From the NCBI GenBank assembly GCA_030390025.1, contig CM059432.1, positions 29,700,001-29,764,000 of the forward strand: a DNA stretch of 64,000 bases, given 5' to 3'. A program made the position numbers and the translations under genes. The DNA is from Squalus acanthias. Its lineage: Eukaryota. Position 1 is the first letter of the stretch. Each line of letters begins with the position of its first letter. The notes below the pieces were generated by a model, which made no database searches, was not told the DNA's origin, and was given only the letters and a program-made list of their open reading frames with translations. Below, piece by piece: positions 882 to 62,270 of this stretch.

Positions 882-2332
882 TAAATGTTTAAGGTGGTGG
901 ATGGGGCACCATTCAAGCAGATTGCTTTATCCTGGATGCTGTCAAGCTTCTTGAGTGTTGTTGGAGGTGTACTCATCCAGGCAAGTGGAGAGTTTTTATT
1001 TATTCGTTCATGGGATGTGGGCGTCGCTGGCAAGGCCAGCATTTATTGCTCATCCCTAATTGCCCTTGAGGAGGTGCTGGTGAGCCGCCATCTTGAACCG
1101 TTGCTGTACGTGTGGTGAAGGTACTCCCACAGTGCTGTCAGGGAGGAAGTTCCAGGAATTTGGCACAGCGACGATGAAGGAAAAGCGATATATTTCCAAG
1201 TCAGGAAGGTGTGTAACTTGGAGAGGAACTTGGAGGTGGTGGTTTTTCCCATGCGCCTGCTGCCCTTGTCCTTCTAGGTGGAAGAGGTCACAGGTTTGGG
1301 AGGTGCTGCCGAAGAAGCCTTGACAAGCTGCTGCAGTGCATCTTGTAGATGGTACATACTGCAGCCACGGTGCGCTGGTGGTGGAGGGAGTGAATGTTTA
1401 AAGTGGTGGATGAGGTGCCAATCAAGCAGCTGCTTTGTCCTGGATGGTGTCGAGCTTCTTGAGTGTTATTGGAGCTGCAAGTGGAGGTGAGAGTGACTGC
1501 CCTTGACATCAAGGTATGACTCCAGCCAGTGGAGAGTTTTCTCCTTGAATCCCACTGACTTCAATTTTACTAGGACTCCTTGATGCCACACTCAGTCAAA
1601 TGCTGCCTTGATGTCAAGGGCAGTCACTCTCATCTCACCTCTGGAATTCAGCTCTTTTTGTCCATGTTTGGACCAAGGCTGTAATGAGGTCTGGAAATGA
1701 GTGGTCCTGGTGGTACCCAAACTGAGCATCAGTGAGCAGGTTATTGGTGAGTAAGTGCCACTGATAGCACTATCGATGACTCCTTCCATCATATTGCTGA
1801 TGATTGAGAGTATACAGATGGGGCGGTAATTGGCCAGATTGGATTTGTCCTGCTTTTTGTGGTCAAGACATACCTGGGCAATCTTCTACTTTGTCGGGTA
1901 GATGCCAGTGTTGTAGCTGTACTGGAACAGCTTGGCTCGAGATGCAGCTAGCTCTGGAGCACAGGTCTTCAGCACGACAGCTGGGATGTTGTCGGGGCCT
2001 ATAGCCTTTGCTGTATCCAGTGCGCTCAGCCATTTCTTGATATCATGTGGAGTGAATCGAAATGGCTGAAGACTGGCTTCTGTGATGGTGGGGACCTCAG
2101 AAGGAGGCAGAGATGAATAATCCCCTTGGCACTTCTGGCTGAAGATGGTTGCAAATGCTTCAGCCTTGTCTTTTGCACTCACTTGCTGTGCTCTGCTATC
2201 ATTGAGGATGGGAATGTTCATGGAGCCTCCACCTCCCGTTAGTTTTTTAATTGTCCACCACCATTCACGACTGGATGTGGCAGGACTGCAGAGCTTTGAT
2301 CTGATCCGTTGGTTGTGGGATCGCTTAACTCT
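882..2332 (-). mobile_element. Nested fragments of a non-LTR retrotransposon (CR1/Jockey-group LINE): RT region and 3' ends
   Basis: ORF 1886-2221 (KAEAFATIF...KAIGPDNIPAVVLKTCAPEL) and ORF 1592-1792 (ALDIKAAFD, RT motif); the same 3' tail recurs near 270, 1000, 5600, 14150, 30280, 53510 and 55120. Confidence 0.85.
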
Positions 2333-9175: not shown

Positions 9176-12100
9176 GGCCCAGAAAGTCGGCCGCGCAGCG
9201 TCCATTTTTCGAACATTAATCGGCCTCCTAACATTTCAATATGGCGGGCAGGAAGCTGAGCATATTTCCAGTGGGAAGTGCGCTGCCTGCCGTGTTGGGA
9301 AAGGTGGATGCCTTGGCAGCAGGAGCGCACGATCCGAGTATATAAATGGAAGAATATTTTATTTAAATTAGGGGGCTGGGCTTCTTGCAGGACCCGTTTT
9401 GGTCTGCCCCAGCGCATGTGCTGAACTCGCACAGCAGCATGTGGCACTAACCGTCAGGAAGGACCCCTTACCATCGCTGTTTAAAGGGATCACGCAGTAT
9501 TTACAGGTTAGTTGGTGGTTTGTGCTGGTTAACTTCTGGATGTTTTTTGGTGTGTTTTATCACTCTGAAAAGTTTATTTCGTCTAAACAGAGCATGATTT
9601 TGCTGGTGGGTTGCACTGTTGTTGTCTGTCTCAGAGATAGTTTGACTGCAGTCATGGGTGATCTCATAGGGCTGCCGTCGGGTCTGGAGAATGAGGGAAA
9701 GTGGCAAGGGAGACACCAGGGAGAAGAAGAAGCGTTGGTGGTACCTCGCCAGTGCTTTGAGGTGCCTGCTGTACATGGTCCATGTCTCTGAGGCATACAG
9801 CAGGGCGGGTATCACTGCTGCTCTGTAGACCATGAGTTTAGTGCCGGGTTTGAGGTCCTGGTCTTCAAACACTCTCTTCCTCAGGCAACCGAAGGCTGCA
9901 CTGGCACACTGAAGACGGTGTTGGACTTTGTCATCGACGTCTGCCCTTGTTGACAGTAGGCTCCCGAGGTATGGAAAGTGGTCCACATTGTCCAAGGTCT
10001 TGTCGTGGATTTTGATAATCGGGGGGCAGTACTGTGTGGCGGGGGCAGGTTGGTAGAGGACCTTTGTCTTACGGATGTTTAGTGTAAGGCCCATGCTCTC
10101 GTAAGCTTTGGTGAAGCTGTTGATGATGGTTTGGAGTTCGACCTCCGAGTGTGCGCAGACACAAGCGTCGTCTGCATACTGTAATTCGACGACAGAGGAT
10201 GGGACAACCTTGGATCTGGACTGGAGGCGGCAGAGGTTGAACAGTTTCCTGTTTGTTCTGTAAATTAGCTCCACTCCAGCGGGGAGCTTACTGAGGGTGA
10301 GATGGAGCATTGCAGCAAGGAAGATCGAAAATAGTGTTGGTGCGATGACACAGCCTTGCTTGACCCCAGTCCGTACGTGAATTGGGTCTGTGGTGGAACC
10401 GTTGGTCAGGATCACAGCTTGCATGTTGTCGTGAAACAGGCGGAGGATGGTGACAAAATTTTGAGGGCACTCCATAATCCTTCATGGTTGACAGTGCCGA
10501 AGACCTTTGTGAGGTCAAAGAAGGCCATGTACAGCGGTTGGTGCTGTTCCCTGCATTTCTCTTGTAATTGACGCATGGTGAAGATCATGTCCATTGTGCC
10601 CCTTAGTGGGCGGAATCTGCATTGCGACTCTGGTAGGAGCTCTTCAGCCACTGGGAGAAGGCGATTGAGGAGGATTCTTGCGATGACTTTCCCTGTGGCA
10701 GACAGCAGGGAAACTCCTCTGTAATTACCGCAATCGGACTTGTCACCTTTCTTGAAGATGGTCACAATTACGACGTCTCTGAGATCCCCTGGCATGCTCT
10801 CCTCCTTCCAGATAAGAGAAATGAGTTCATGAATTCGTGCCAGTAGTGCTTCTCCACCATGCTTTAGTGCCTCGGCAGCGATTCCATCTGCTCCTGAGGC
10901 GTGGTTGTTCTTCAGTTGTCGGATGGCCTTTTCAACCTCTTGCTGGGCTGGGATTGTGCTTAGGTGGTGGCGGGTAGCCTGCTGCGGGATGGAGTTGAGG
11001 ACACTCGCGTCGAAGACAGAGTCTCGGTTAAGGAGATCTTCGAAGTGCTCCTTCCAGCGGGCACTGACTGCCTCTCTGTCCTTGATGAGTACCTCTCCGT
11101 TCTTGGCCCGCAGTGGGATAGGACCTTGGGTGCTTGGGCTGTAGATGGTCTTGACTGCGCTAAAGAATCCATGCACGTCGTGGTTCTCGGCTAGCTGCTG
11201 GATCTCCTGCGCTTTCTCCACCCACCATCTGTTCTTTAGGTCGCGAGTTTTTTGTTGAACCTCGGCCTTCAGGCGTCTGTAGAGCTGCTTTCTTGCTCTC
11301 GAGTTCTGTTGCTGTTTCCAGATCAGGAATGCCTTGCGCTTGCGGCTTATTAGCTCCTGGTCATTCTCGTCGAACCAGTCTTGGTATTTCCTGGTCGAGT
11401 GACCGAGCGTCTCTTCACAGGTGCTGATTATGGAGGCCTTGAGTGCAGACCAGGCGCTGTGGACACTCTGTGTCTCTACATCACTGGGAGTCGTCAGGTT
11501 GTTTGTGAGGCGCAGGCTGAATAGGGCTTTCTTAGTGGGGTCTTTGAGTGCTCCATCGTTGATTTTCCTGCGGCATTATTTCTGTTGTCACCGCTGTTTT
11601 GGGGCTACATTGATGGAGATGACAGAGCGGATTAGGCGGTGGTCTGTCCAGCAGTCGTCAGCTCCTGTCATGGCGCGGGTGATGCGGACGTCCTTGCGGT
11701 CCCTCGCTCGGACGATGACGTAGTCCAGCAGATGCCAGTGCTTGGAGCGAGGGTGCTGCCATGAAACCTTGTACTTGTCTCTCTGATGGAACAAGGTGTT
11801 GGTTATGACAAGGCCCTGTTATAAGCATTTCGTCAGGAGGAGGGTACCGTTGGAGTTGGCTTTCCCTACCCCCTCTCTACCGATCACACCTCCCCAGAGG
11901 TCTGTGTCCTTTCCAACTCTGGCGTTAAAGTCGTCAAGGAAGATCAGCTTGTTGCCAGTCTGGCTCAGCTGACTGTGTGGTACTAGCAAGGACACTGATG
12001 GCTGCCTCTCCCATGGGACTGCGCCTCAGCACTCCAACGTCTCTGCGTGATATCAGAATGCAGGAGGGATGTGATGGTCTGGAAGCCCATGTCAACACTG

Positions 12101-13771
12101 GCTCCCCTGAGCCAAAATGGCAGCCATCTGAGCTTCCACAGCATCTATGAGAGCTGTTAGGAGAGGCTCCACGGGGTGTACCACTGTGGTATTAATGGGT
12201 TGATCACTCAGTCCATGTTGGACAGAATAGTCTCCATGTTCCGCACGAAGCTTTGAGACAAGCTGGAGCTGGACTCCTCCCTGCTCTGCAACATTGTGCG
12301 CTAGCTCTCTGGCAGGCTACGCAGTGCACTTAGCATTTTCTGGTGTATGCCCATCAGGGCTCATTGGTAGCCTGGGCCCTCATGTCAGCGTCTAAGTGTT
12401 CTGCCACTGAACTAGTATGTGATCTCTCCTTTCAGCGAGCTGGCACCTGTGGCATCCTGTCCCCCTGCCCTAGCTCCTGCGCACTTGTGCCCGATGAGTA
12501 GACACTTCCTCTAACCTAGCTGCTAAAGTCCATGTGGTGCCAGTATTTGAGCTAGTGCTTGCAAGAGTCATCGAGTGCCGGTGCATCTTCAGGAAGGCTG
12601 GTCTCCTCTTCCTCAATTGGCAGGGGGGCTTCCAAACATTTAGCAGCTGAAATGAAAGAGAGGGAGAGGGGTTAACTTGTGCTGTGAAAGGAGAGAAGAG
12701 AGCGAGAAGTGGGTGGTTAAAGCATGTGCAGCTTGTCACGCAGCGTGTGTGGAGTGGGGTAGAAGTCAGAAGAGAAAAAGAGAATGAAGTGTGAAGAAAC
12801 CCTGCATGACATCTCCTCCAATGTTGCCAGTCGCCATGGCTGCGACTCTCACCCCCCAACCCCCCCCCCCCCACCCCCCGCCCATGATGGCCAGCACACT
12901 TCCTTCGAAAGGGGACAAGGTGTGCAGTTGGGCCCTTCCTCCTCCAGTGCCAGCCTGCTGTCTGGAATTGTGTGCAACCTTCTCCTGCAAGAAAAAAGGG
13001 AGTGTGTTCGTGCGGTGTTTGGAAATGTACCTGTCTTGTGTCGTGTTTGCAAATGTACCTGGCATGGTCGGAGAACTGGTAGTCAGTGTATCAGATGTGA
13101 GTTGTGGGTGTCAGGGTTTTAATAGTGGTGAGTGTGTGAGTGTAAGGAGAAGTAGGTGCAATGAAGTGTGGTGCTGTGATTGTAGGACATTGAAGGGAAG
13201 CAGGGGAGGGGAGTCTTGTGAATAGTGAGGCTGTAGGTGGTGGAGATGTGAGCAGAGAATAAGAGAGCACTATTCTAACTCTGACAACTCTAGTGATGTC
13301 ATTGAACTTTTTCCAGCATTGCAGCCATTTCCTGGGTGCTAGGCTGTTGGCATTGACATGCTCTGTGATCTCTTCCCATTGCTGGAGTTGATGCCAAGAG
13401 GGCTTCCAGCCTACTGAGGAGATAGGAAGGGGGAAGAGGATACCCCCCTCCTGTCCACTGCCTGCAGCATGGCCTCCAAGGTAGCGTCAAAGAGCCTTGG
13501 TGCTTCCTCAGCACTTGTTACAGCCATTTCATTATTGTTTAGAGTTTCCTTCATTCTGCAGCCAAAGTGCACTTCCTCTTTAAGAGGTGCTGACTGCCTT
13601 TAAATGGCATCAGAGACACCCAATAGCCAGATCCCCTAATAGGTGTGCAACCAATGAGTAGCAAGGGTAGCTATCATATTGCCTGCTACCTGAGTCAACA
13701 CTAACAAGTGCGTGTAATGTGCAGCCCGCCCCCGGTGCACTCGTTTCCGGGCACGATCGGCTTTCTAGGCC
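9176..13771. mobile_element. Harbinger-type element E with internal RTE insertion
   Basis: TIRs GGCCCAGAAAGTCGGCCG / revcomp GGCCTAGAAAGCCGATCG; flanks GTT / ATT; CR1 rejoins across it; Myb-gene exons on - strand (about 13527-13280, and EKVAHNSRQQAGTGGG near 12988). Confidence 0.8.
9732..11957 (-). mobile_element. RTE (BovB-like) LINE, truncated at both ends, frameshifted
   Basis: ORF 11588-11794 (endonuclease: LLDYVIV, WTDHRL), ORF 10412-11221 (KKGDKSDCGNYRGVSLL) and ORF 9501-10475 (GVKQGCVIAPTLF, LQYADD). Confidence 0.95.
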
Positions 13772-15951: not shown

Positions 15952-16136
15952 GGGGGTGAAATTAATCTTGGGCAGATGAGCAAAATGGGCGACAGCACCC
16001 CTGCAGCCTGTTTTACGTTTCGCCTCATCTTCTTTTCTACTGAATTCAATGCAAAAGAAAATTGGGCGTGTGTAAAATGGGCTGCCGATGTGTTATTGCC
16101 CGTCTTGCACAATTGCCCAAGACAAGTTTCACCCCC
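15952..16136. mobile_element. Harbinger-like MITE
   Basis: TIRs GGGGGTGAAATTAATCTTGGGCA / revcomp GGGGGTGAAACTTGTCTTGGGCA; TSD AAG at 15949-15951 and 16137-16139. Confidence 0.8.
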
Positions 16137-16359: not shown

Positions 16360-18370
16360 TCAGACTAATTAACATTGGCGCAGCACTAAACTCACTGTGC
16401 AAGGCTGGTTTTCAGGCGGTAGTCTCAGCAGGAGGCCCAATATAGCGTGGCCGTAGCATCCCTGGAGCAAGAACAGCCTTCTCTTAAAGCAAGCTTATCA
16501 TTTTAGAAAGCAGTGTCTTAAAGGGAAAAAAATTTAAATTATTTTAAAATAGGCAGTTTTTAGCCCTTACAACTCAACTGATTTACTGAAAAAAAAGTAA
16601 ACATTAAAAAGCATTCCCAAATGGCAGTCTTCGGCTCTTAAAGCTGAATTTAAAAAATAGGAAAAGTGCTTCAGCATTAAAACAAATGGCTCAGCAAGCC
16701 AGGGAAGGGGCACCCAGGGACTCGCACGCAAGACAGGTCCTCTACCCACAGGGGTCAGGAGGCCCTCAAGAAAGAAGGATGTGGGACCAGATCACCGAGG
16801 CCGTCACTGCCAGCAGTGTCGCCCCCACCACCTGGCTCCAGTGCTGAATGAAGCTTCATGACCTCAGACCACTGGTCAAGGTCAGTGAATGCATCTTCAA
16901 AAGCCGTCTCCTACCAACTGCACCACCAGCCTCACACAATGCTCAATGCACAACTCTCCATCCCCAATCACTCACCTACCAACAATCTGTACCAAACACG
17001 ATGCACAGCTCCCATTCCTAACTTCACCTCACCCCCTTGGAGGAGATGGTGCTGGCCATTCTTGTCAGGGGCATGGCTGAGCCCTTGGCCAGCGGCAGAG
17101 CTGAAAGGATACAAGATGCTGGTACCCTCATGCATTATCCTCTTTCTCTCATGCACCTCTTGCTTTCCTGCCCTCCCCTCACCTCAACTCCACCCTTGTG
17201 CCTTCCTCATTTCACACACCCAAGAAATGCAGCCTGCTCAACAGTGATTGACCAAGAAGAGGGAGAGGAGAGTGAAGAAGAAGAAGAAGAAGAAGAACCG
17301 TCACTCAATTTCACACTCCCAGCCACCAGCTCCTCAACATCGACCTGCAAGGCTATTTGCAGTGTCCCCCACTGAAAGTCAGCAGCCTTCCACCACCCAT
17401 GCTGCAGCCACTGGGGTAGCACTGTGTGACATCAATAGGATAGGTAAAGGTACAAACAAGACAGTCACTAAGCAAATCCATAAGGGTGATTAGTTGGTTT
17501 CTTGATGTCATATTGGATGGATAGATGTATAAAGTTGGATTGGAAAACTTTATGGTGGCTTTTATTTCAGCATTGAGGTTAAGAGGATACTATGATGGTC
17601 AGTAACAGAGGGAAGGTAAGGTGTGGGACGAATGTTTAAAGGGGAATTGGGGTTGTGGTCACTGGTACTGCAGATGGATGATTCCACCCCGGATATCCCA
17701 GTCAGAAAGGGGCTGTCTGGTTGCATCCTTCCTTCTGCTTCCTCATTCTCTGCTTCTTCCTCTTCTGCGTCTTCTTCTTCCCTCTGCAAGTGAATGCTGG
17801 AAATCTGAAACAAAAGCAGAAAATGCCGTAAATACTCAGCAGGTCAGGCAGCATCTCAATCTAAGACGTGAACTCTGTTTCTCTCTCCACGGTGCTGCCT
17901 GACCTGCTGAGTATTTCCAGCATTTTCTGTCTTCTCAGAGGCCTTCCTTTACATCCGAGGCCTTGCATGCATCCAGCAGCACTCCCTGCACACTTTAAAA
18001 ACTTTTAACATCTATTGCACCAAGCCACTACTGCAATAAAATATTAAAAATCCAGGCCAAAAGCTTAAATGCAAACTTACCTGAAAGATGTGTGTGTCCC
18101 TTTAAGTAGCACTGACAGCGTCTCTGTAGGTCTGCTGCACGCTCGCTTTTCTGCGCGAGCTTAGGACCCAGCATTAAACTCAGCGCAAAAGTCCAAGTTC
18201 GCAGATTTGCATGTCTAAGGCCAGCGCTGCTAACAGCAGCGCTATAGTCCTCACCAAAATGGCGGCTGGCGAGTCCCACACTAGAGGTGGGCGGAAGTGA
18301 GGCAGCCGCCATTCTTATTCACAAAACGGGTGATACCAGGTGGCGGGTAAGTACCCGAATTTCCAGCCCC
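16360..18370. mobile_element. Harbinger-type non-autonomous element B (inverted relative of A), left end truncated
   Basis: Colinear reverse-complement similarity to about 2900-4900 (same peptide MLPQWLQHGWWKAADFQWGTLQ in both); ends GAATTTCCAGCCCC. Confidence 0.8.
17792..17929. mobile_element. Penelope-like inverted pLTR remnant (second family) inside element B
   Basis: 37-bp inverted arms 17817-17853 / 17893-17929 (35/37 identical); absent from element A; related relic near 26160. Confidence 0.6.
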
Positions 18371-22081: not shown

Positions 22082-22795
22082 AACAACAACAACAACAACT
22101 TGTATTTATATAGTGCCTTTAACGTAGTAAAACGTCCCAAGGCGCTTCACAGGAGTATTAAAAGAAAAAAAATTTGACACCGAGCCACATAAGGATAAAT
22201 TAGGGCAGGTGACCAAAAGCTTGGTCAAAGAGGTAGCGTCTTAAAGGAGGAAAGAGAGGTAGCGAGGCGGACAGGTTTAGGCAGGGAATTCCAGAGCTTA
22301 GGGCCGAGGCAACAAGAGGCACGGCCACCAAAGGTTGAGCGATTATAATCAGGGATGCTCAAGAGGGCAGAATTAGAGGAGCGCAGATATCTCGGGGGGT
22401 TGTGGGGCTGGAGTAGATTACAGAGATAGGGAGGGGCGAGGCCATGGAGGGATTTGAAAACAAGGATGAGAATTTTGAAATCGAGGCACTGCTTAACCGG
22501 GAGCCAATGTAGGTCAGCGAGCACAGGGGTGATGGGCAAACTGGACTTGGTGCGAGTTAGGACACGGGCAGCCGAGTTTTGGATGGAATGTGGGAGGCCA
22601 GCCAGGAGTGCGTTGGAATAGTCAAGTCTAGAGGTAACAAAGGCATGGATCAGGGTTTCAGCAGCGGATGAGCTGAGGCAAGGGCAGAGACGGGCGATAT
22701 TACGGAGGTGGAAGTAGGCGGTCTTTGTTATGCTGCGGATATGTGGTCGGAAACTCATTTCAGGGTCAAATATGACACCAAGGTTGCGAACATTA
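22082..22795 (-). mobile_element. L2 LINE 3' end
   Basis: ORF 22225-22833 (VRNLGVIFD...LIHAFVTSRLDYSNALL...LHWLPV); (CAA)n tail. Confidence 0.92.
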
Positions 22796-22839
22796 AACTG
22801 AAAAAAACTGGAGGGGACTCTTGTACTCAGCAAAGTAAT

Positions 22840-23017
22840 GGGGGTAAATTTTCATCTTCGCCGCCTGGGTGGTAATCCGGAGGAGCAGATGGCTCACCCA
22901 TTGTAGTATCCTGCCTGATTTTCATTAACTTGACATCAATGTGATGAAGACAGGATGGACTTTATATATGCTCCACTTGATTACAACCCAGGTAATGAAG
23001 AGGAAAATGTAAACCCC
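22840..23017. mobile_element. Degenerate Harbinger-like MITE
   Basis: GGGGGTAAATTTTCATCTTC ... GAAGAGGAAAATGTAAACCCC inverted ends. Confidence 0.55.
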
Positions 23018-23370: not shown

Positions 23371-23915
23371 TCCAACCTATACGTCCAGTATTACCAATTT
23401 GTACTCTCAAGCTAGAGGGTATAGCTTCCTCTCAATCATCATCATGTCAGGTGCAGCATAGGTCAGATGCAGAGTATACAGAGGAATAGTAGACCCTCTA
23501 TATTACATTACATAGGATTACATAGGATATACAGCACAGAAACAGGCCATTCGGCCCAACAAGTCCATGCAGGCATTTATGCTCCACTCGAGCCTCCTCC
23601 CGTCTTTCCTCATCTAACATTATCAGCATAACCCTCTATTCCCTTCTCCCTAATATGCTTATCTAGCTTCCCCTTAAATGCATCTATATAATTTGCTTCA
23701 ACCACTCCCTGTGGTAGCGAGTTCCACATTCTCACCACTCTCTGGGTAAAGAAGTTTCTTCTGAATTCCCTATTTGATTTCTTGGTGACTATCTTATAAC
23801 GATGGCCTTCAGTTTTGCTCTTCCCCACAAGTGGAAACACTCTCTCTGTGTCTACTCTATTGAAATCTTTCATGATTTTAAAGACCTCTATTAGGTCTCA
23901 GCCTTCTCTTTTCAA

Positions 23916-24005
23916 ATGTGAGAAGTCGCACAACACCAGGTTATAGTCCAACAGCTTTATTTGAAATCACAAGCTTTCGGAGCGCTGCTCCTTCGTCAGG
24001 TGAAG
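23916..24005 (-). mobile_element. Solo Penelope-like pLTR fragment, 90 bp
   Basis: Near-identical to part of the 44-kb arms; flanked by 11-bp duplication TCTCTTTTCAA (23905-23915, 24006-24016). Confidence 0.8.
23967..24003 (-). ncRNA. Minimal type I hammerhead ribozyme motif
   Basis: UCAC-CUGACGA-A-GGAGC(AGC)GCUCC-GAAAGCUU-GUGA: catalytic core boxes, stems I and II, palindromic AGCU in place of stem III. Confidence 0.75.
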
Positions 24006-24124
24006 TCTCTTTTCAAGACCCAGCCTGTATATATTAAGCGATAGTCAGTCCTGTATGTATTATTATACGGGAAGCATAGATCCTGTATATACTATAGGAG
24101 GTAGCAGACGAATAGTAGATCTAC

Positions 24125-32057: not shown

Positions 32058-32500
32058 ATAACGACAACTTGCATTTATAAAGCGCCTTTAACATAGTAAA
32101 ACGTTCCAAGGTGCTTCACAGAAGTGTAATCAGACAAAAATCGGCACCGAACCAAGGAGATATTAAGTCAGGTGATCAAAAGCTTGGTCAAAGACGTAGG
32201 TTTTAAGGAGCTTCTTAAAGGAGGAGAGAGAGGTGGAGATATTTAGGGAGGGAATTCCAGAGCTTAGGGCTGAAGGCACGGCAGCCAATGGTGGGGTGCA
32301 GGAAGTCGGGGATGAGCAAGAGGCTAGAATTGGAGGAGTGCAGAGTCCCCAGAGGGCTGTAGGGCTGGAGAAGATGATAGAGAGAGGCAAGGCCCTGAAT
32401 GGATTTGGACCCAAGGATGAGAATTTTAAATTTGAGTCATTGGTGGACCGGAAGCCAATGTAGGTTAGTGAGCACTGGGGTGAATGGGACTTGGTGCACA
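32058..32500 (-). mobile_element. L2 LINE 3' end
   Basis: FKKLLKTYVFDQAF; matches the 22082 copy. Confidence 0.82.
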
Positions 32501-39684: not shown

Positions 39685-40925
39685 TTATTGAAATCTGCCA
39701 TTGATAAGGGTATCCCTGGCGTGACGGGCAGCAACGTGCTCGTGTACTGGTCGCAATGGGACCGCCGGCTCGTCCAGGTGTTCCTCATCCTCGTGACCAA
39801 CCTCATGGTGAGCCACATCCTCCTCATCCTCCGATGAGGCTCTGCACTCAGCAGCTTCTTCCTCATCCAGTACTAATCCTCGCTGCTGCTTTATGTTGTG
39901 CAGGGCACAGCAGACGATGACTATTCGATAGACTCTAGCTGGTGTGTACTGAAGGGCTCCTCCAGATCTGTCGAGGCATCTGAAGCGCATTTTGAGCAAG
40001 CCTATTGTCTGCTCGATGACACTTCTCGTGGAGATGAGGCTTTGATTATGACGTCCCTCAGGCTCGTTGGTTGGCCTCCTCAAAGGTGTCATGAGCCACG
40101 TCTTCAGGGGATAGCCCTCGTCTCCAAGCAGCCAGCCGCCAAGACTGTTTGGCGGTGCAAAGAGCTGAGGGATGGTGGAATGGTGCAGGATGTACGAGTC
40201 ATGGCAGCTGCCAGGGAACTTAGCGCACACATGGATGATAATCTTCCTATGGTTGCAGACCAGCTGAACATTGAGGGATTGGAAGCCCTTGCGGTTAACA
40301 AATGCTACTGGGTTGTGATGGCCACATGTGTACAGTCGATGACTCCCTGCACCCATGGGAAGCCAGCTAGAGCGGCAAAGCCAAGCGCATGTTCATTGAC
40401 AGTGGCTTTATCAGTGGCAAAATGTATATAATTTGTGGACTTGTTAAAGAGGGCATCGGTTACCTGTGCGATGTATCTGTGTGCAGCCAACTGCGAGATG
40501 CCGCAAAGGTCTGCTGCAGATGCCTGGAAGGAGCCTGAGGTGAAGAAGTTGAGGGCAAGGGTGAGTTTGACAGCCATTGGTAAGGAGTGTCCACCCCTTC
40601 CTCTGGGCTGCAGGTCTTGCTCCAGTAAGGTGCAAATGCTGGCGACGACCTGGCGCGATAGCCTGAGCCTCCTTTGGCACTGCTGCACTGTCATGTTGAG
40701 GAAGCTCATCCTCTGCCTGTATACCCTGTGTTGGGGGTATGGCCTCCGATGCGGTCCAGCCCTGCGCTGATGCCCTATGCTCTGTGCAGCATCAGGTGGT
40801 TGAGGAGAAGGTTGGCGCTCTTGTTGTTGCTGCTGCTGCTGGTGTGGCTGGTTCTGCTGCTGCTGCTGCGGCTGATCATCATCAGATTCGGAGGACCAAG
40901 GTGACAGAGCATAAATCGTGCCCAT
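39685..40925 (-). pseudogene. Harbinger (HARBI1-like) DDE transposase with a single frameshift
   Basis: ORFs 40305-40925 and 39685-40356: [70 protein letters not shown]. Confidence 0.95.
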
Positions 40926-41317
40926 TCTGATGATTCATATGGCAGGTGAAGTTCAGATGACAGAACCAATCTATCAAGGGTTAGATATGATGTTGCAAGG
41001 AGGTGACAGTGAATAGAGAGTTTACTGCAAACACTTCCCAAATGCATAAAGCTTAAAAACTGTTCCAAATACTCAAGCCTGAAGCTTCTGAGAGTGGAAA
41101 GTGACCAGCTGTAAAATGGCAGGTTTTAAACCACTTTTGCAGCTGTCACCTATTGAAAGAAATGGAGAGTTGTTCAGAACCCGACATACTTACCTGGCTT
41201 GATCCCCGCGTGACGGGAACCTCGTGGAAAACTTGGGAAAATACTTTGTGCCTACTAAAATGGTGAGTAAATTGGTTTAAGCACCCTCTCATTAACTTGC
41301 TGCTCAGTATCCACTAC

Positions 41318-41695: not shown

Positions 41696-42077
41696 ATTCA
41701 TAATTTACAATATGAATGTAAAAATGAAAGAAGGATTTGCAGACGTTCATTTAATTGATTTGTCTGGTTGGACTGTTTTTGCAGAATTTAAACTTAAGGG
41801 AATAATAAGTGTTCCAGCGTTCCCGGCGGAGAGCTGTGGTCAAAGGTAGTGCTACAGTGTTGTAGCTTCGAACCATGCTCCCTTCAAGCACACCTCCCTG
41901 TTGAAGTGCAGGATCACTGAATTTATCCTTTAATGAGAAGATGGCATTTAACCTGTATGAAGAGTTATAAAAGGAGCTTGAGGATAATAATCAAGATTAT
42001 CACTACTCGATTGCTATGCAAATGACACTTAGAGACTCTACTTGGAGCCAGCATGAGCATTAATAAATCAGCAACAT

Positions 42078-42146
42078 CCAAAACCATTTCTTAAGATACA
42101 GGAACTATTTTGATCAACAGAACCTGTATCTTGAGAAATGGTTTGG
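42078..42146 (+). repeat. Isolated hairpin (22-bp stem, 20-nt loop)
   Basis: AAACCATTTCTTAAGATACAGG (42081-42102) pairs with CCTGTATCTTGAGAAATGGTTT (42123-42144), with one G-U pair. Confidence 0.85.
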
Positions 42147-44037
42147 TATATTGAGATGTCAATGGTAAATATTATGGAAAATGAACTTTTCTCTTCTTGG
42201 TACTCTAACATTCCTAGTTTAGATCATTAGCTTGTGAGTCGATGCAGAATAATAGAGGTATAATAACGAACACCAACAGCATTTCAATATTCCCTGAAAA
42301 TACATTAACCAGTTATAGTGGTATATAAAAAATACCACAGTCCACAAAGAGAAAAGTTGCTCTGTGATCATTGTCATTATGTAAACCTTCACAATGCTTT
42401 TCAATTTCCCACTGAATACCATGCAGATTTATTTACAGTAACAATGGTTTCAGAGATGTTTGATAAAGATTGCAAGTTACCACCTCTATTTTGTTTGCAC
42501 GCAAATGTCATAGAGTCATAGAGTTATACAGCACAGAAAGAGGCCCTTCGGCCCATCGTGTCTGCGCCGGCCATCAAGCCCTGTCTATTCTAATCCCATT
42601 TTCCAGCACTTGGTCCATAGTCTTGTATGCTATGGCATTTCAAGTGCTCATCTAAATGCTTCTTGAATGTTGTGAGGGTTCCTGCCTCTACTACCCTTTC
42701 AGGCAGTGAGTTCCAGATTCCAACCACCCTCTGGGTGAAAAAGTTTTTCCTCAAATCCCCTCGAAACCGCCTACCCCTTACCTTGAAACTATGCCCCCTG
42801 GTTATTGATCCCTCTACTAAGGGGAAAAGTTCCTTTCTATCTACCCTATCTATGCCCCTCATAATTTTGTACACTTCAATCAGGTCCCCCCCCAGCCTTC
42901 TCTGCTCTAAGGAAAACAACCCCAGCCTGTCCAGTCTCTCTTCATAGCTGAAGCGCTCCAGCCCAGGTAACATCCTGGTGAATCTCTTCTGCACCCTCTC
43001 CAATGCAGTCACATCCCTCCTATAGTGTGGTGACCAGAACTGCACACAGTATTCCAGCTGTGGCCTAACTAACGTTTTGTACAGCTCCATCATAACCTCC
43101 CTGCTCTTATATTCTATGCCTCGGCTAATGAAGGCAAGTATCCCATATGCCTTTTTAACCACCTTATCTACCTGTCCTGCTGCCTTCAGGGATCTATGTA
43201 CATGCACACCAAGGTCCCTCTGATCCTCTAACCTTCCAAGGATCCTACCATTCATTGTGTATTCCCTTGCCTTGTTTGTCCTCCCAAAATGCATCACCTC
43301 ACACTTTTCAGGGTTAAATTCCATTTGCCACTGTTCTGCCCATCTAACCATCCCGTCTATATCGCCCTGTAGCCTGAGGCTTCCTCCTCGCTATTTACCA
43401 CTCCACCAATTTTCGTGTCATCTGCGAACTTACTGATCATACCTCCTACATTCCTATCTAAATCATTAATGTACACTACAAACAGCAAAGGACCCAGCAC
43501 CGATCCCTGCGGTATACCACTGGACACAGGCTTCCAGTCACAAAAACAACCTTCGACCATCACCCTCTGCCTCCTGCCACTAAGCCAATTTTGGATCCAA
43601 TGTGCCAAATTGCCCTGGATCCCATGGGCTCTTACCTTCTTGACCAATCTCCCATGTGGGACTTTGTCAAAAGCCTTACTGAAGTCCATGTAGACTACAT
43701 CAACTGCACTACCCTCATCCACACACCTAGTTACCCCCTCGAAAAATTCAATCAAATTGGTCAGACATGATCTCCCCCTGACAAAGCCATGCTGACTATC
43801 CCTGATTAATCCCTGCCTCTCCAAGTGGAGACTAATTCTGTCCCTCAGAATTTTTTCCAATAATTTCCCTACCACTGATGTCAGGCTCACTGGCCTGTAA
43901 TTCCCTGGTTTATCCCTACTACCCTTCTTGAACAATGGTACTACGTTAGCTGTTCTCCAGTCCTCTGGCACCTCCCCTGTGGACAAAATTGAGAGGTCGC
44001 ACAACACCAGGTTATAGTCCAACAGTTTTATTTGAAA

Positions 44038-44075
44038 TCACAAGCTTTCGGAGCTATCGCTCCTTCCTCAGGTGA
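44038..44075 (-). ncRNA. Minimal hammerhead ribozyme motif (left arm)
   Basis: Exact reverse complement of 44337-44374. Confidence 0.75.
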
Positions 44076-44336
44076 AGTAAATTGGATACAGAATCGCCAG
44101 AGCATATATAGATGGAAAAAAAAGCATGTGTACTTTACAATTGCAGACCAATAAATTAAATCATCCTGACTATCTGCCGAGGTGTGATAAAGTTAATTAA
44201 GTCAGCCAGGAAGGTACCACATCAAAAGACATAGCAAGATAGTCAGGATGATTTAATTTATTGGTCTGCAATTGTAAAGTACACATGCTTTTTTTTCCAT
44301 CTATATATGCTCTGGCGATTCTGTATCCAATTTACT

Positions 44337-44374
44337 TCACCTGAGGAAGGAGCGATAGCTCCGAAAGCTTGTGA
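44337..44374 (+). ncRNA. Minimal hammerhead ribozyme motif (right arm)
   Basis: UCAC-CUGAGGA-A-GGAGC(GAUA)GCUCC-GAAAGCUU-GUGA. Confidence 0.75.
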
Positions 44375-45395
44375 TTTCAAATAAAACTGTTGGACTATAA
44401 CCTGGTGTTGTGCGACCTCTCAATTTTGTCCACCCCAGTCCAACACCGGCATCTCCGCATCATGACCTCCCCTGTGGCCAGAGAGGTTCTGAAAATTTGT
44501 GTCAGAGCCCCTGCAATCTCCTCCCTTGCCTCACACAGCCTGGGGATTTATCCACTTTTAAGCCCGCTAAAACCGCTAGTACCTCCTCCCTCTCAATACT
44601 AATTTGTTCAAGTATATCACAATCCCCCTGCCTGATTTCTATGCCTACATCGTCCTTCTCCATCGTGAACACAGATGCAAAATATTCATTTAAAACCTCA
44701 CCTACATCTTCCGGCTCTACACACAGATTGCCACTTTGGTCCCGAATGGGCCCTACTCTTTCCCTGGTTATCCTCTTGCCCTTCTGTGTTTGCCCTGGAA
44801 GTCCATAATCTGTACAAACTCCTTTACTTATTCAGTAGAGCACCGTGGGACATTTTGTTGGATACAATGTGCTACAAGTTGTTGTTCTTTCTGTTGAGAA
44901 AAAGTTGCTGCATAGAATTATAGAATCTAACAGCAAAAAAGGAGGCCATTCGGCCCATTGTGCCTGTGCCTGCTCTTTGAAAGAGCTATCCAACTCAGCT
45001 AGGAGTTTACCCGTTTAATCAGTTCTGTCACCATAGTAATTGACAGAGGCTTAGGAGAAGGTCAGCACTTTATGGTTAGGGAAATCAGCAAAGAGAAAAT
45101 AGAAGAGGATTTTATTTTATCAGAAATATAAATGGAGATGCCTATAGATTCCCTAGCTCATTTGTCCCCTCTTGTTCTGATGTTTCAAACTCTGAAGGGA
45201 ATGGTCTCCCTGACATGACATTGTACCTATGCTGCCTAAGGTCACACGCTAGGTAATGAATCAAGGTCTCCTGGCATATCTGCTGCTGCACAAGCTTGCC
45301 ACTGACATCATTGTAAGCCTCGTAGGAGCTGAATTCTTCAGATGAAGCATACCCAGAGGCTTAACCTGGCTGCTGAAACTCCCCCACTGTACTAA

Positions 45396-45690
45396 ATGTG
45401 CGGGTTAGGTTGATTTGGCTATGATAAATTGACCCTTAGTGTTAGGGGGGGATTAAATATGTGGGGTTACAGGGATAGGATGGGATATGTAAGGGGGAAT
45501 TAAATACGTGGGGTTACGGGGATAGGGTGGGATATGTGTCGGTGCAGGCTCGATGGGGATTCTGTGTGAGAAAGCAGGGACAGGGTACGGGATTTGGATG
45601 ATCAGCCATGATCGTATTGAATGGTGGAGCAGGCTCGACGGGCCGAATGGCCTACTCCTGCTCCTAGTTTCTATGTTTCTATGTTTCTAT
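45396..45690 (+). mobile_element. V-SINE 3' half with internal tandem duplication, followed by a CR1 tail
   Basis: Matches 24285-24395; segment GGGG..TAAATAYGTGGGGTTAC..GGGATATGT occurs twice; (TTTCTATG)n tail. Confidence 0.75.
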
Positions 45691-50443: not shown

Positions 50444-50888
50444 TGATGGTTTGAAGACTTCAAACTTTAATTTTCATAACATCAGTAAGAGAAAGAGGGA
50501 CTTAAAGAAGCAAGATGGTGTTTGTAGCGCGCTTTCCTCAGTTAAAGTGCAGTGTGTATTTTTGGGTGCCCCGTTATAGAAAGGATATTAAAGCCATAGG
50601 GGCTAAATTGGATAAGGCCTGAAAACGGGCGCGGGGATCGCGATGCGTGATCTGCCCGCTTACGTTGAAAATAGTGCAGGCAGTACGCGAAATTCGTGCT
50701 GCCTGCTCATTACGATGATTGCAGCGCTAAACGCACTGCTGGTTGGCTCAGCACTCAACAGGGGGCCCAATATCATGTGGAGTCTGCTTTCTAGTTAAAG
50801 GTTGCCTGCAGAGTGAAAGGCTGTCTGCACTTCTTAAAGGGGAGGTTCTTTGTTACAGAAGTTCCTCATTGTGACTGGAGCTGGAGCA

Positions 50889-53600
50889 ATGTCAAAACAG
50901 GGGGGAGAAAGGGCAGCTTGGTTCGCCGATGCAGCACTGGAGGCCTTGGTGCAGGAGGCCTACAGGAGACAGGTCCTCTACCCGCAGGGGGGGCAGGAGG
51001 CCTTCCAGACACACTGTGCGAAGGCTTTGGGAGGAGATCGTAGAAGCCATCAGTGCAACCAGTCTTGCCTCCAGGACATGGATCCAGTGCCGGAAGAAGT
51101 TTAATGACCTCACACGAGTGGTCAAGGTGAGTGAATGGATTTTCAAATGCCATATCCCACCAACTGCACCACTAGCCGTACACCCTGCTCAATGCACCAT
51201 ACCCCCATCACTCACCTACCAGCAATCTCTAGCAATCATGACTCATACTTCACAATAATAGCTTCACCTCACCCTCACATACTTACCACTGCTGCAAGCT
51301 TCATACCCACATCTCACACCATGCCAGCTATTCAACCATGACAGGCACATCACCCAAACACATTGCACCACACTCACTGACACACATCCCTTTCTCATGC
51401 GGGCCAAGGTGGCTCACAACCGGCGTGAGCAGGAACAAACCGGCAGGGGGGCAAGCATGGCTGCAGAACCTGGCTCTGCTGGAGTAGACTGTGCTGGAGA
51501 TCATTGGAGGGGCCGTCACTGAGGCCGTGGCAATTGGCAAGGCTGAAAGCATTGATGATGACGGTATTCTCATACCTAATCCTTCTTCTCACATCCCATT
51601 TCTCCCTCATCCCACAATCTCTTCTCACTTACACGCTGCTGATTGTATACAAATGCACATCTTGCTGTCACCCCCTCCCCTCAGCACAACCTGACACTTG
51701 TGCCTTTCTCCTTTCAGATATCCAGGAACTGCCAGCCCCGCCTATGCAGGAAGAAGTAGAGGAGGAGAGTGATGGAGAAGAAGAGGTACCATCACTCAAT
51801 CTGACACTCCCAGGCACCAGCTCAGAAAATGGCACTGCGCGAACTTTAGAGGGTAGTATAGAGGCAGGATCTACACGCGGTGAGTCACCGGGCACAAGTG
51901 GGCTGCAGCCAGGGAGGGGGAAAGGGTAGCTCAGGTACCTGCTCCCCGGAGGACAAGGTCGCATACATGCTCTGCTCCACAGGACTCAGAGGAGGACTTT
52001 GATGGGGTGGCCTTCAGAAGAAGGGTGATGGGCACAGAATTGCTTAGTGCAGCGGTTCCCAACCTGTGGTCCGCGGACCACCAGTGGTCTGCGAGGGTAC
52101 TGCAGGTGGTCCGTGAAAAAAAATAATTATGATACTGTAATAATAATATCATCACGTGTACCTTGTATGTATCATATTCGATATTACATTATTATTCGCA
52201 ATGTAATATGCTTCACAAACATCCTTGTGATTCTCTGAATTTTAATAGTGTGGCGCTTTTGCGTGACGTCAATGTGAACCGACGCTCTTAGAAAATTCGA
52301 CGGTTAGAGCGCGGGAATCAAAAAATGGATCGGTGGCTTTTATCTGGCATGCGTAAGCAAACTCTCTACTGTGGTCAAAATGACAGTGAGACATCAGCAA
52401 ATGAAACTCAGCACAACAAAAGTAAGTGAAAAGTGAGGAGAAAATACAGCAGTGAATACTTAAAACTGGGATTTACTTACACTGGAACTGAGAACGAACC
52501 GTTACCAGTATGTGTCGTGCGCTATGATGTTCTGTCGGATGAAAGCCTAAAGCCCGCTAATCTTCGCCGTCATCTTGAGACTAAGCATGGGGAATACGTG
52601 TCCAAGCCAATTGGATTTTTTTACAACCAGCTCAAAGAATTTCAACGTAGCAAGACAATTATGGAATGCACATCTAAAGGCAGTGATAATGCTAAGGCGG
52701 TGGAGGCCTCGTACCGGGTAGCTAGGCTCATAGCAAAGACAGGGAAGCCGCACACAATTGGGGAGGAGTTGATATTACCAGCGGCTAAGGAGATGGTGGG
52801 TGTTATGCTGGGAGAGGGAGCCTGCAAGCAAATTAACATGATTTCATTGCGTTTTTAATACCTGTTGATATATAAGTTTGACTCCCGTCAGCCATAGGCT
52901 ATGTTAAAAATGTTTTAACCGGCTAGTGGTCCGCAAAAGCTTTTGATGACGATGTAGTGGTCTGCATAAAGGAAAAGGTTGGGAACCACTGGCTTAGTGC
53001 AATGGCAGGCCTGCCAGACAGCCTCTTGTCACTGTCAAGGAGCATGGAGGAGTCCGGCTCCAACATTGCACGGGGCTTTGTGCGGAGCTTGAAGCCAATG
53101 TTCCCTATAATATTTTTTGGGTGCGTGGCCTGTTTAAGGGGCTTTTTGGCCCATTCAAAATACCATGCATGCGCGGTTCTTCCTATTTAAAAGCAGGTGA
53201 GCCGACTGCGAGGGAGCTGCAGAGAGCTGTGCAGCCACGCAGCTTAAAGACAACATTGCTTGGAGCCCATGATTTCCAGGATGGAAGTGATGGGCAACTC
53301 CATGAGAGCACTTGTGGACCCAGCCATGATGCTGGGTGTAATGGGCGCTCTCACAGTTTCCATTGCAGCACAAGCGGAAGCGACCCAATGTCTGAGTGCT
53401 GCAGTGGAAGCTCAGACTTCTGTCATGCAGGCTCAGCTTGCTGCCATGCAAGCTCAGACTGCTGCCATCGTGGCTGGGTTTACGAGTGTGGAAAGGGGCT
53501 TTTTTTTTAAATTCATTTATGGGATGTGGGCGTCGCTGGCAAGGCCAGCATTTATTGCCCATCCCTTGCAGGGTCTCACAGAAGTTCAGCAAGCTGTGAG
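50889..53600 (+). pseudogene. Spliced Myb/SANT-like partner gene of element D, disrupted
   Basis: MSKQGGERAAWFADAALEALVQE...LWEEIVEAISATSLASRTWIQCRKKFNDLTRVVK then donor gtgagt at 51127; next exon AKVAHNRREQ; acidic exon after ctttcag at about 51718; frameshifts and hAT insertion. Confidence 0.8.
52050..52991 (+). mobile_element. Internally deleted hAT transposon, Buster/SPIN/Charlie type
   Basis: 16-bp TIR CAGYGGTTCCCAACCT (15/16); 8-bp TSD GCTTAGTG (52042-52049, 52992-52999); ORF 52433-52858 RKYSSEYLKLGF...KPANLRRHLETKH...KPHTIGEELILPAA. Confidence 0.95.
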
Positions 53601-59822: not shown

Positions 59823-61254
59823 CCGAAAGCACTTACCTGAGGGCTGCTGCAACGCTAGCAGCGGTCCAAACTTGGAGTCCTCTTCACTGGCAGGCTCTTC
59901 ACGTTTTTGCCAGCAATATTGAAATGAGGCCCGACGCCCAATATCTGAAGAGCCTTGGGCCTCAGCATTCAGAAGGAAAGGGGCAAGAACTATTCCTCCT
60001 GCTTGCCCAAAAATGATCACTGCACAATTTCTGGGATTCTATGTGCATGTCCCCTGAGGAGGTAACCGGACATGAGAAAACCAGCAATATTCAATGAATG
60101 GGACCTGCTGTGGAACTGACACTTTCAGATTAATAAGGCACCCAGCCTTTCTTAACTGTTTAACAAAATGTCAGGACAATTTCATTCTTTTCCATAGACT
60201 CTTGAATAGGCAGTGCTGGGGGGGTGGGAAAAGGAACAAAGTCTGATTATAATCTGGGAACACTAAAAATAACAGGGACGCACATCAATATAAGTATTTA
60301 CCGTTCATGGGAGTTATCCCCAGAGTTCCCCCATCTCCTATAAGGAGATGACAAGATACAAAGTACAATGACAGTAATGAGCCACAACCCATGCAGCTGT
60401 CAAGAGAATGGACATATTTGAGGCAATGTAGCCCTCCTACCCACCCACCCCCCACCCCACCCCCAAAGCCTCGGCCTACTATTTTAAAAGTGGCAAATAA
60501 TATACAAACACACTTTAAAGGAGGGAGGGGGGAGAAATAAAATGAGCTCATGATTCGTGCTCTTGGTCACTATCCAGTCACTCCTTCACTTCTCCCCTCC
60601 ATTGGAAAGCGTGCATCTATGGATGTCAGATGAGGGCATTAATCTTGGGCTTGGTTGTGATGGCCTACCATGGTGGAATAGCTCGTTGATACTCGGGCCA
60701 GAGTTTACTGTTTTGGGAGACTCCCGGCGAAGCTCCAGTGGGGCCTGGAATGTAGCCCTCCCAACGGCCGTCCCAACGGCCTGATCCCAGACGGTTTTCC
60801 TGGGGTTAGGGTAGCTTGCATTTTCTTGGTGGGCAGATGGCTGGGATCCCCGCCTCTGTTGGAGGGAGGGAAATTGGTGCAGCAGGCCTCGGGGGCCAGC
60901 TTCAGAGTATCGGGGCTGGCTGCCTGCGGGAGCAGCTAAAGAGGATGTATCATTAATTTCATGGAGCGGAGGGGGCAGGGGGGGGGGCGCGGTGGATGGG
61001 GGAAGTTGAACAAATTGCCCCCAAAGAACTAAAGAATTTTTTAAATTTAATTCCTCCGCATCCCACCTGATGCCAGAAGGGCACAGGCATTCCAAACACC
61101 CATCGGGGCGGGGCAACTACAGCGAATACCTGTTCCCATCATTTGCTTGTCCTTTGAATGTGCCCACCCATATTTGGGCAGACCACGCCCATCCATCATG
61201 TATTTCAAATGAGAGGATAAACAGAGGCATCTGTCTGCCCTCTCAGATGACACC

Positions 61255-62270
61255 AACACCAATAACTTGCATTTATATAGCGCCTTTAACATAGTAAAAG
61301 TCCCAAGGTGCTTCACAGGAGCCTTATTAAACAAAATTTGACACCGAGACTCGTAAAGAAATATTAGGGCAGATGGCCAAAAGCTTGGTCAAAGAGGTAG
61401 GTTTTAAGGAGCGTCTTAAAGGAGGAGAGAGAGGTAGAGAGGTGGAGAGGTTCAGGGAGGGAATTCCAGAGCTCAGGGTCTTGGCAGCTGAAGCCACATG
61501 GTGGAATAATTAAAATCGGGGATGCGCAAGTGGCCAGAATTAGAGAAGCACTGATATCTCGGAGGATTGTAGGGCTGGAGGAGGTTACGAAGATAGGGCT
61601 GGGCAAGGCCATGTAGGGATTTGAAAACAAGGATGAGAATTTTTAAATCGAGGCGTTGTTTAACTGGGAGCCACTGTAGGTCAGCGAGCACAGGGGTGAT
61701 GGGTGAACGGGACTTGGTGTGAGTTAGGACAGGAGCAGCAGAGTTTTGGATGACCTCAGGTTTACGGAGGGTGGAAGATGGGAGGCCGGCCAGGAGTGCG
61801 TTGGAACAGTCTAGAGGTGACAAAGGCATGGATGAGGGTTTCAGCAGCAGATGACCTGAGGCAGGGGCGGAGTCGGGCGATGTTATGGAGGTGGAAATAG
61901 GCGGTCTTAGTGATGGCGCATTATGTTTTTGCAAGCTCATCTCGGGGTCAAATACGACACCAAGCTTGCGAACAGTCTGGTTCAGCCTCAGACAGTTGGC
62001 AGGGAGAGGGATGGAGTCGGTGGCTACGGAGCGGAGTTTGTGGCGGGGACACAGGACAACGGCTTCGGTCTTCCCAATATTTTGTTGGAGGAAATTTCTG
62101 CTCATCCTGTACTGGATGTCGGACAAGCAGTCTGACAATTTAGAGACAGTGGAAGGGTTGAGAGAGGTGATGGCGAGGTAAACTCGGGTGTCCTCAGCCT
62201 ACATGTGGAACCTGACGTTGTGTTTTCGAATGAAGTCACCGAGGGGCAGTATGTAGATGAGAAATAGGAG
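61255..62270 (-). mobile_element. L2 LINE, RT C-terminus to 3' end
   Basis: ORFs 61473-62138 (NIGKTE, RKLGVVFD, LQWLPV) and 61364-61630. Confidence 0.92.

Follow-up and report, generated by a model that had tools for sequence, protein, structure and literature searches.

The 64-kb window analysed here (the whole stretch from Squalus acanthias, all positions being counted from its first letter) carries on its minus strand a 5'-truncated LINE reduced to the 3' half of ORF2, which we take, from the character of its sequence, to be of the CR1 type and which is interrupted by a palindromic insert (Table 1). The reverse transcriptase frame of this host LINE is intact (RVT_1, E 3.4e-29) and sibling copies are found inside the window. 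The preliminary description of the locus, made from the letters alone, had called this host a young CR1, a view that agrees with the intact frame but not with two frame breaks, one near 43360-43390 and the other close to 44540, nor with the minority base present in this copy at 5 of 38 listed flank positions (from 40 of 62 rows, the other letter exceeding 80% of the depth in run X1). The host LINE is a dead copy that looks recent.

Table 1. Positions of the insert, its component parts, its host LINE and the second copy present in the window
Feature	Positions	Strand	Basis and remarks
Host 5'-truncated CR1-type LINE, 3' half of ORF2	42509..44790	-	RVT_1 match, translations; ends approximate
Left TSD	43970..43982	.	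At most 13 bp; 43979-43982 ambiguous, target or arm
Left arm: shorter, inverted PLE end, 5'-truncated and without tail	43979..44175	-	Element 3' end faces left; unambiguous part 43983-44175
Left-arm minimal type I hammerhead motif	44038..44075	-	Descriptor; predicted cut after 44042
Spacer, 61 nt, additional 5' stretch of the sense copy, the longer of the two	44176..44236	+	Difference in truncation length; presumed to adjoin the right arm in other copies too
Right arm: PLE end in sense orientation (AT-rich 3' region, hammerhead, 3' part of the pLTR)	44237..44433	+	Arm comparison
TATA-like heptamer	44302..44308	+	Precedes helix I by about 30 nt; mirror copy at 44104-44110; weak candidate pLTR promoter
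Right-arm minimal type I hammerhead motif	44337..44374	+	Descriptor, folding; predicted cut after 44370
Parts of the right-arm motif	44337-40/44371-74; 44341-47; 44348; 44349-53/44358-62; 44363-66		Helix I; core; extra A; helix II; GAAA
PLE tail, 31 nt, ending in ATG	44434..44464	+	Same tail after the arm end in other contigs
Right TSD	44465..44477	.	Repeat comparison
Second copy of the PLE end, unpaired, tail-less	23913..24006	-	91.6% identity over 95 columns; core CUGACGA, 3-nt loop II

The two arms of the insert are complementary at 197 of 197 positions, the complementarity does not extend outwards, and they constitute the longest pair, and the sole one at 100%, among the 25 longest of the 40 inverted pairs found in the window at distances of at most 1500 nt. 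Only the right arm is followed by a tail. The direct repeat that bounds the whole is identical at 13 of 13 positions, and GTGG makes up both the last four bases of its left copy and the first four of the left arm. Therefore, the locus has either a TSD of 13 bp with an arm of 193 bp or a TSD of 9 bp with an arm of 197 bp, never the longer value of both. The in silico deletion of the insert with one copy of the repeat yields an uninterrupted CR1 ORF2 frame on the minus strand. Furthermore, an empty-site continuation from 43982 into the sequence beyond the right repeat is present in 29, 19 and 61 contigs from three DNA-type runs (X1, X5 and X12, respectively). The arms, the 61-bp spacer, the 31-nt tail and the 13-bp TSD ending in GTGG, all initially noticed from the letters alone, are thus borne out. 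No contig bridging the junctions of the locus 43970-44477 was found among the 32 listed pieces out of about 66,670, and the palindrome was seen in the window only. In total, the insert amounts to a sense copy of 289 nt, including the tail, and an inverted copy of 193-197 nt; the spacer possibly starts at 44173, with a 3-nt TCT microhomology. Nine nucleotides of the tail pair with 44388-44396, in a hairpin that is no more stable than those of shuffled sequences (z -1.23, not significant; 27 of 200 shuffles equally good).

The 64 kb were scanned with our own descriptor of the minimal type I hammerhead, with 20 block-wise base shuffles as a control. Three matches were obtained (C3 at 44341 on the plus strand and at 44071 and 23999 on the minus strand), and none in any of the 20 shuffles. 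Two of them lie in the arms, one per strand, 270 bp apart, and display helix I UCAC/GUGA, the core CUGAGGA, an extra A, a helix II of 5 bp, GAAA, the palindromic AGCU and a CUU triplet. The proposal that each arm holds a minimal hammerhead with AGCU and CUU is therefore upheld. Both arm motifs agree with the consensus of PLE minimal hammerheads (PMC4209133, Fig. S3; like the other publications used here, cited for the portions of its text available) at every listed feature. The third motif has the core CUGACGA and an altered loop II and keeps both helices; a change at a free core position together with kept helices would be the pattern of a conserved motif, as judged from two sequences. A search of positions 43000-45500 against Rfam, up to E 10, retrieved six chance-level matches and no hammerhead family, a result that would be expected for a motif devoid of helix III. 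TATA-like motifs are described in pLTRs in the portion of PMC3846280 available; the heptamer present here, TATATAT, has 19 matches in the window and is thus not specific.

The distribution of these sequences in public contigs was surveyed in four runs (X1, X5, X8 and X12) of the 24 listed, for the stretch 43500-44236; summed depths, which are not equivalent to copy numbers, served only to show the shape of the profile. In X1, the summed depth is 5-6 million at 44000-44049, i.e. at the 3' end of the element, and about 0.6-1.2 million over the inner arm and the spacer (edge bin excluded). Summed depths are similarly high over the inner arm and the spacer in two samples of organism A; in organism C, coverage is confined to 43975-44099, and both regions have zero or near-zero depth. 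This profile indicates that the spacer belongs to the repeat family of the inner arm rather than being captured unique DNA, and that the part extending from the hammerhead to the end is shared more widely. Directly after the arm end, the same tail is read in 52 contigs of X1, 48 of X5 and 8 of X8. No listed run is recorded as RNA; X8 was guessed to be an RNA run, and its family sequence is no evidence for transcription of the locus 43970-44477. Tail-less ends are also encountered: four listed junctions with other parts of the LINE have them at 43983, 43989, 43992 and 43996. In addition, X12 and X5 include fold-back joints that differ in length and centre from the locus. Globally, the pattern in public contigs is that of a single high-copy family comprising spacer, arm and tail. 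The second copy found in the window, which adjoins another CR1-type fragment, is flanked by an 11-bp TSD (23905-23915/24006-24016), and its 3' end lies at about the equivalent of 43984.

With a probability of about 85%, the insert stems from a single insertion of an abundant Penelope-like element (PLE) of the endonuclease-bearing type, truncated from its 5' side until only the pLTR was left. It is assigned to this class by its anatomy, i.e. by four structural features: the tail, the head-to-head copy, the TSD and the hammerhead consensus. Indeed, the available text of PMC8557442 describes an inverted 5'-truncated copy and a tail of 30-40 bp, and that of PMC3846280 an inverted shorter pLTR beside a direct one, a 31-bp tail on one end and TSDs of 8-10 bp. 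At the locus, the optional tail at one end is present with 31 nt, an inverted 5'-truncated copy lies at the 5' end of the direct copy (the orientation being given by the hammerhead strand and the tail), and a TSD of 13 bp, or 9 bp if 4 bp are attributed to the arm, surrounds the whole unit. Pairs of minimal hammerheads on opposite strands, 100-700 bp apart, were reported as early as 2014 (PMC4209133, in the portion available). The arrangement is therefore an ordinary instance of a published type of PLE insertion, and the PLE-type end recognized in the preliminary description, with its tail, TSD and minimal hammerheads, matches the anatomy of such insertions. Conversely, the distinct mini-element that was also proposed there is not supported, since the same end occurs unpaired and tail-less in the second copy, with its own TSD, and since fold-backs of other lengths exist elsewhere, as would be expected of truncation products.

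The trait that defines the class is a terminal repeat linked to an ORF with a PLE-type RT and a GIY-YIG endonuclease. The insert contains no ORF and is, as supposed, non-coding, and no GIY-YIG family was found in any of the 41 ORFs of at least 120 aa of the window, which also has 219 ORFs of 70-119 aa. A protein search with the frame running into the ATG of the tail (a 40-aa query including 10 flank residues) gave three candidates, none at E ≤ 1. The sole match among 1.84 billion representatives, a repetitive horsehair worm protein of 4818 aa, was rejected as a chance match, its 11 identities out of 26 being summed over repeats and the protein having neither RT nor GIY-YIG. Five pattern scans for the hammerhead core or the 3' motif in three collections (metagenome_contigs, viral_contigs and genome_contigs) retrieved 0 loci; these collections are microbial or viral and are mute on novelty. 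A description of this PLE family in sharks was not found in the papers searched, and the family may already bear a name in Repbase or Dfam. The very recent age initially assigned to the insert is not retained: the absence of mismatches in 193 pairs allows up to 1.1e7 generations (95% bound), if the rate of 7e-10 per site per generation given for another shark species, the epaulette shark, in the portion of PMC10587355 available, applies.

Folding predictions suggest that these hammerheads would have little opportunity to act in read-through RNA. In a read-through transcript (MFE -373.7 kcal/mol), the pairing probability of helix II is 0.0, versus 0.99 without the antisense part, which agrees with the idea that long dsRNA prevails over the cleavage fold. 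Likewise, helix II pairs with a probability of at least 0.99 in five transcripts that end at or before 44464 and lack the antisense helix II, and of 0.0 as soon as the left arm is present in full. Helix I forms chiefly in short transcripts that begin near 44333 (probability 0.66-0.80), and both helices are lost (0.26 and 0.0) in a longer transcript extending to 44600. On either strand, transcription would pass through the antisense arm first and then through the sense hammerhead. The earlier statement that either strand gives one hammerhead plus its antisense is thus correct for read-through but not for a transcript started inside an arm, which would lack the antisense. As the two motifs are carried by different strands, no tandem dimer can form in cis; in the nearest-neighbour model, the active double hammerhead reaches -23.3 kcal/mol, versus -25.8 for two monomers. 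According to the available parts of the relevant papers, no cleavage was seen for a monomer and a low level for dimers (PMC4209133), and none was seen without the PLE protein, insertion in vitro not requiring cleavage (PMC11167929). Since read-through RNA buries the hammerhead in dsRNA and since the motifs never share a strand, the locus is probably a catalytically silent remnant. It was most likely dead on arrival and, if it is read through, could at best supply dsRNA.

The portion of PMC8557442 available calls the origin of the inverted repeats and tails of PLEs undefined. A purified PLE protein, that of PAc, a Poseidon-type PLE from Anolis carolinensis, cuts and extends both strands of its target, and its reverse transcription starts internally, at one site on either side of the tail (Frangieh et al. 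2024, PMC11167929, available portion); the two kinds of 3' end found in the contigs and the second copy match these two start sites. The insertion could have begun with a PLE protein cutting the two strands of the CR1 copy at positions 13 nt from each other. Synthesis of cDNA would have been primed by the nick on the right, at the distal start site, i.e. at the end of the tail, and 289 nt would have been copied.

The left half could then have arisen by two routes. Along the first, to which we give slightly better than even odds, the second nick would prime 31-35 nt further upstream, at the proximal start site, aided by a 4-nt pairing (GTGG/CCAC), and the two cDNAs would be joined head to head. 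This scheme is analogous to the twin priming of L1. Along the other route, quite conceivable at odds below even, the first cDNA would fold back on a short microhomology and copy itself over 193-197 nt, the left end of the target being captured through the same 4 nt; this follows the self-priming idea put forward in PMC3846280 (available portion). The 4-nt microhomology, whose chance probability is about 1 in 256, fits both routes, and the existence of a tail-less end without a palindrome, in the unpaired copy, favours two-sided priming. Whatever the route, the spacer would correspond to the difference in length between the two copies, and the hammerheads would be passengers. The base composition of the target counts against the proposed origin, as it has about 69% G+C, versus the AT-rich site preferred by the Anolis protein (PMC11167929, available portion).

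Other explanations of the palindrome were weighed against this truncated insertion. It is improbable that the insert is a defined non-autonomous palindromic mini-element of about 490 bp, transcribed and mobilised whole by a PLE protein in trans. Such an element would be non-coding, bounded by a TSD and made of identical arms, as is the case here, and non-autonomous PLE derivatives do exist (bioRxiv 10.64898/2026.07.22.740005; PMC8557442; available portions of both). Moreover, one X5 contig joins 44025 to 44173 by an inverted junction that enters the sense copy at most 3 nt from the central junction of the locus (the shorter side having 20 letters), with a depth of 101.9, versus 12-28 for other single joints; this entry at 44173 hints at a preferred 5' boundary rather than a random truncation. 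However, the other side of the same contig stops at 44025, which makes its arm about 150 nt shorter and places its centre elsewhere, the fold-backs of X12 and X5 have several centres, and the unpaired copy has a TSD of its own. Furthermore, a 197-bp duplex RNA would be a poor template, and the published non-autonomous forms are head-to-tail. A further version, whose probability is similarly low, would make the palindrome a member of a PLE-derived, non-autonomous family whose 5' start is fixed near 44173, acting as a context switch between a free hammerhead with tail and a silencing duplex. If this were true, transcripts from the two divergent TATA-like sites would carry the free hammerhead and the tail needed for mobilisation, read-through would produce a 197-bp duplex, silencing the ribozyme and giving rise to small RNAs directed against the whole PLE family, and the two short microhomologies would testify that PLE inverted repeats originate by cDNA fold-back.

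The great abundance of the family could also bring two independent PLE insertions together, and a simple insertion could be rearranged later by breakage and fold-back repair or by gene conversion, which could keep the arms identical; the microhomologies at the left and probably at the central junction would fit end joining. These scenarios appear very improbable, as a single TSD surrounds both copies, the removal of the insert restores the host frame without any loss of flank, and this layout is the usual primary product in other species (PMC8557442 and PMC3846280, available portions). Still less credence is given to an artefact of the library or the assembly, in which a fold-back chimera would have been collapsed into the assembly. 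The 100% identity of the arms, the lack of a bridging contig among those listed and the recovery of 0.85 of the sampled words in the best run would be in keeping with it, but the asymmetric tail, the exact 13-bp TSD, the unique central junction and the restored empty-site frame are unlike a chimera; in addition, an independent sample holds 0.83 of the words, and similar fold-backs occur in the contigs of other runs. Two further classes were considered and rejected. MITEs and fold-back DNA transposons have inverted repeats that reach both ends, move as a whole unit and generate TSDs of fixed length. Here, the tail is found on one side only, a half-arm occurs alone with a TSD of 11 bp versus 13 bp, and ends and centres vary. 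A non-LTR retrozyme was discarded as there is one motif per strand, in a head-to-head arrangement, and no direct repeat of the arm nearby.

The truncated PLE insertion retained here adds one member to a family that is very abundant, and its layout was published between 2013 and 2021. The locus alone matters little, and its use is that of a clean specimen. A genome containing many such short insertions would offer a computational test of two-sided priming versus cDNA fold-back. Furthermore, these hairpins, if read through, could be a self-made source of dsRNA acting against the family.

Compared with known systems, each taken from the available portion of its source, the locus resembles first of all Pen2a_Av and its relatives (PMC3846280, and the scheme given in PMC8557442), with which it shares a shorter copy placed head to head, a 31-nt tail at one end and a single TSD, as well as the insertion into a non-LTR retrotransposon and the TATA-like motif in the repeat (PMC3846280). 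Unlike Pen2a_Av, it has no ORF between the two copies, both of which retain no more than about 290 nt from the 3' end, its TSD has 13 (or 9) bp instead of 8-10, and a central loop of 61 nt takes the place of a short palindrome or overlap. Its hammerheads are similar to those of PMC4209133 by CUGANGA, one extra base, G10.1-C11.1, GAAA, a palindromic 15.2-16.2, UH and a short helix I, and by their U-rich and AU-rich flanks. The G C U U that follows GAAA is that of the Chrysemys row, and helix I UCAC/GUGA that of the Petromyzon Poseidon row; the supplement, in its available part, gave 0 matches for 'shark' or 'Callorhinchus'.

Like PAc (PMC11167929), the family has two alternative 3' ends that bracket the tail, with the hammerhead upstream, and the cutting and extension of both target strands by PAc in vitro provides a route to head-to-head copies. 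The ORF of PAc starts at helix II, whereas at the locus all frames from helix II meet stops, which leaves the ATG at the end of the tail as the only, putative, start; PAc also differs by its preference for AT-rich targets, and inverted copies do not figure in the available portion of that paper. Lastly, the insert is, like the non-LTR retrozymes (bioRxiv 10.64898/2026.07.22.740005), short and non-coding, with a type I hammerhead and a kinship to PLE pLTRs, but these elements form head-to-tail arrays with at least two hammerheads on the same strand, whereas the locus is organised head to head, with one hammerhead per strand.

Apart from the main insert (43970-44477), in which truncated ends of a Penelope-like element (PLE) lie head to head in a CR1-type LINE, the window carries one further copy of the same PLE end, which is unpaired and tail-less and adjoins another CR1-type fragment (23616-23912); both PLE copies of the window lie in or beside CR1-type sequence. 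At the 3' end of this second copy, the target-site duplication (TSD) overlaps the element by about 3 nt, and the TSD is likewise overlapped in the main insert. Among the joints listed for public contigs over 43500-43982, i.e. points where a contig switches from one window position to another, four connect the PLE end to other positions of the host LINE family (43588, 43640, 43641 and 43708), which indicates that they are further independent PLE insertions in LINE copies.

Mobile-element domains are the only Pfam matches among the 41 ORFs of at least 120 aa in the whole window, and this search, which addresses long ORFs and not short exons, recognised no host gene. The overlapping frames with RVT_1 matches presumably belong to an RTE-like LINE, and we take the decayed LINE 3' regions, which are copies of one region, to be L2-like. 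A fragment at 13091-13486 (-) resembles the Harbinger-like or Myb/SANT-like pieces and lacks a Pfam match. None of the four short inverted repeats tabulated carries a hammerhead motif, and the one at 17817-17929 may represent a fold-back that belongs to a different repeat family.

Features of the window outside the main insert
Position	Strand	Feature	Details
1484-1636		Short inverted repeat	31 nt, 97%
9501-11575	-	Two overlapping frames	387 + 326 aa; RVT_1
15952-16136		Short inverted repeat	65 nt, 75%
17817-17929		Short inverted repeat	37 nt, 95%
22083-22851, 32066-32496, 61250-62198		Decayed LINE 3' regions	75-80% alike
23913-24006		Second PLE copy	11-bp TSD
39685-40934, 50875-51258	-, +	Harbinger-like transposase pieces and Myb/SANT-like fragment	Transposase: DDE_Tnp_4, E 6.7e-32
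42072-42153		Short inverted repeat	38 nt, 82%

Judging from the aligned contigs, the PLE end comprises subfamilies that differ in loop II, which closes hammerhead helix II (window 44054-44059). The 4-nt loop II of the main locus is near-universal in the organism A contigs aligned there; the 3-nt loop II, as in the hammerhead of the second copy (at 23999), is found in loose ends in X5, one of the runs of contigs aligned to 43500-44236, and predominates in organism C.
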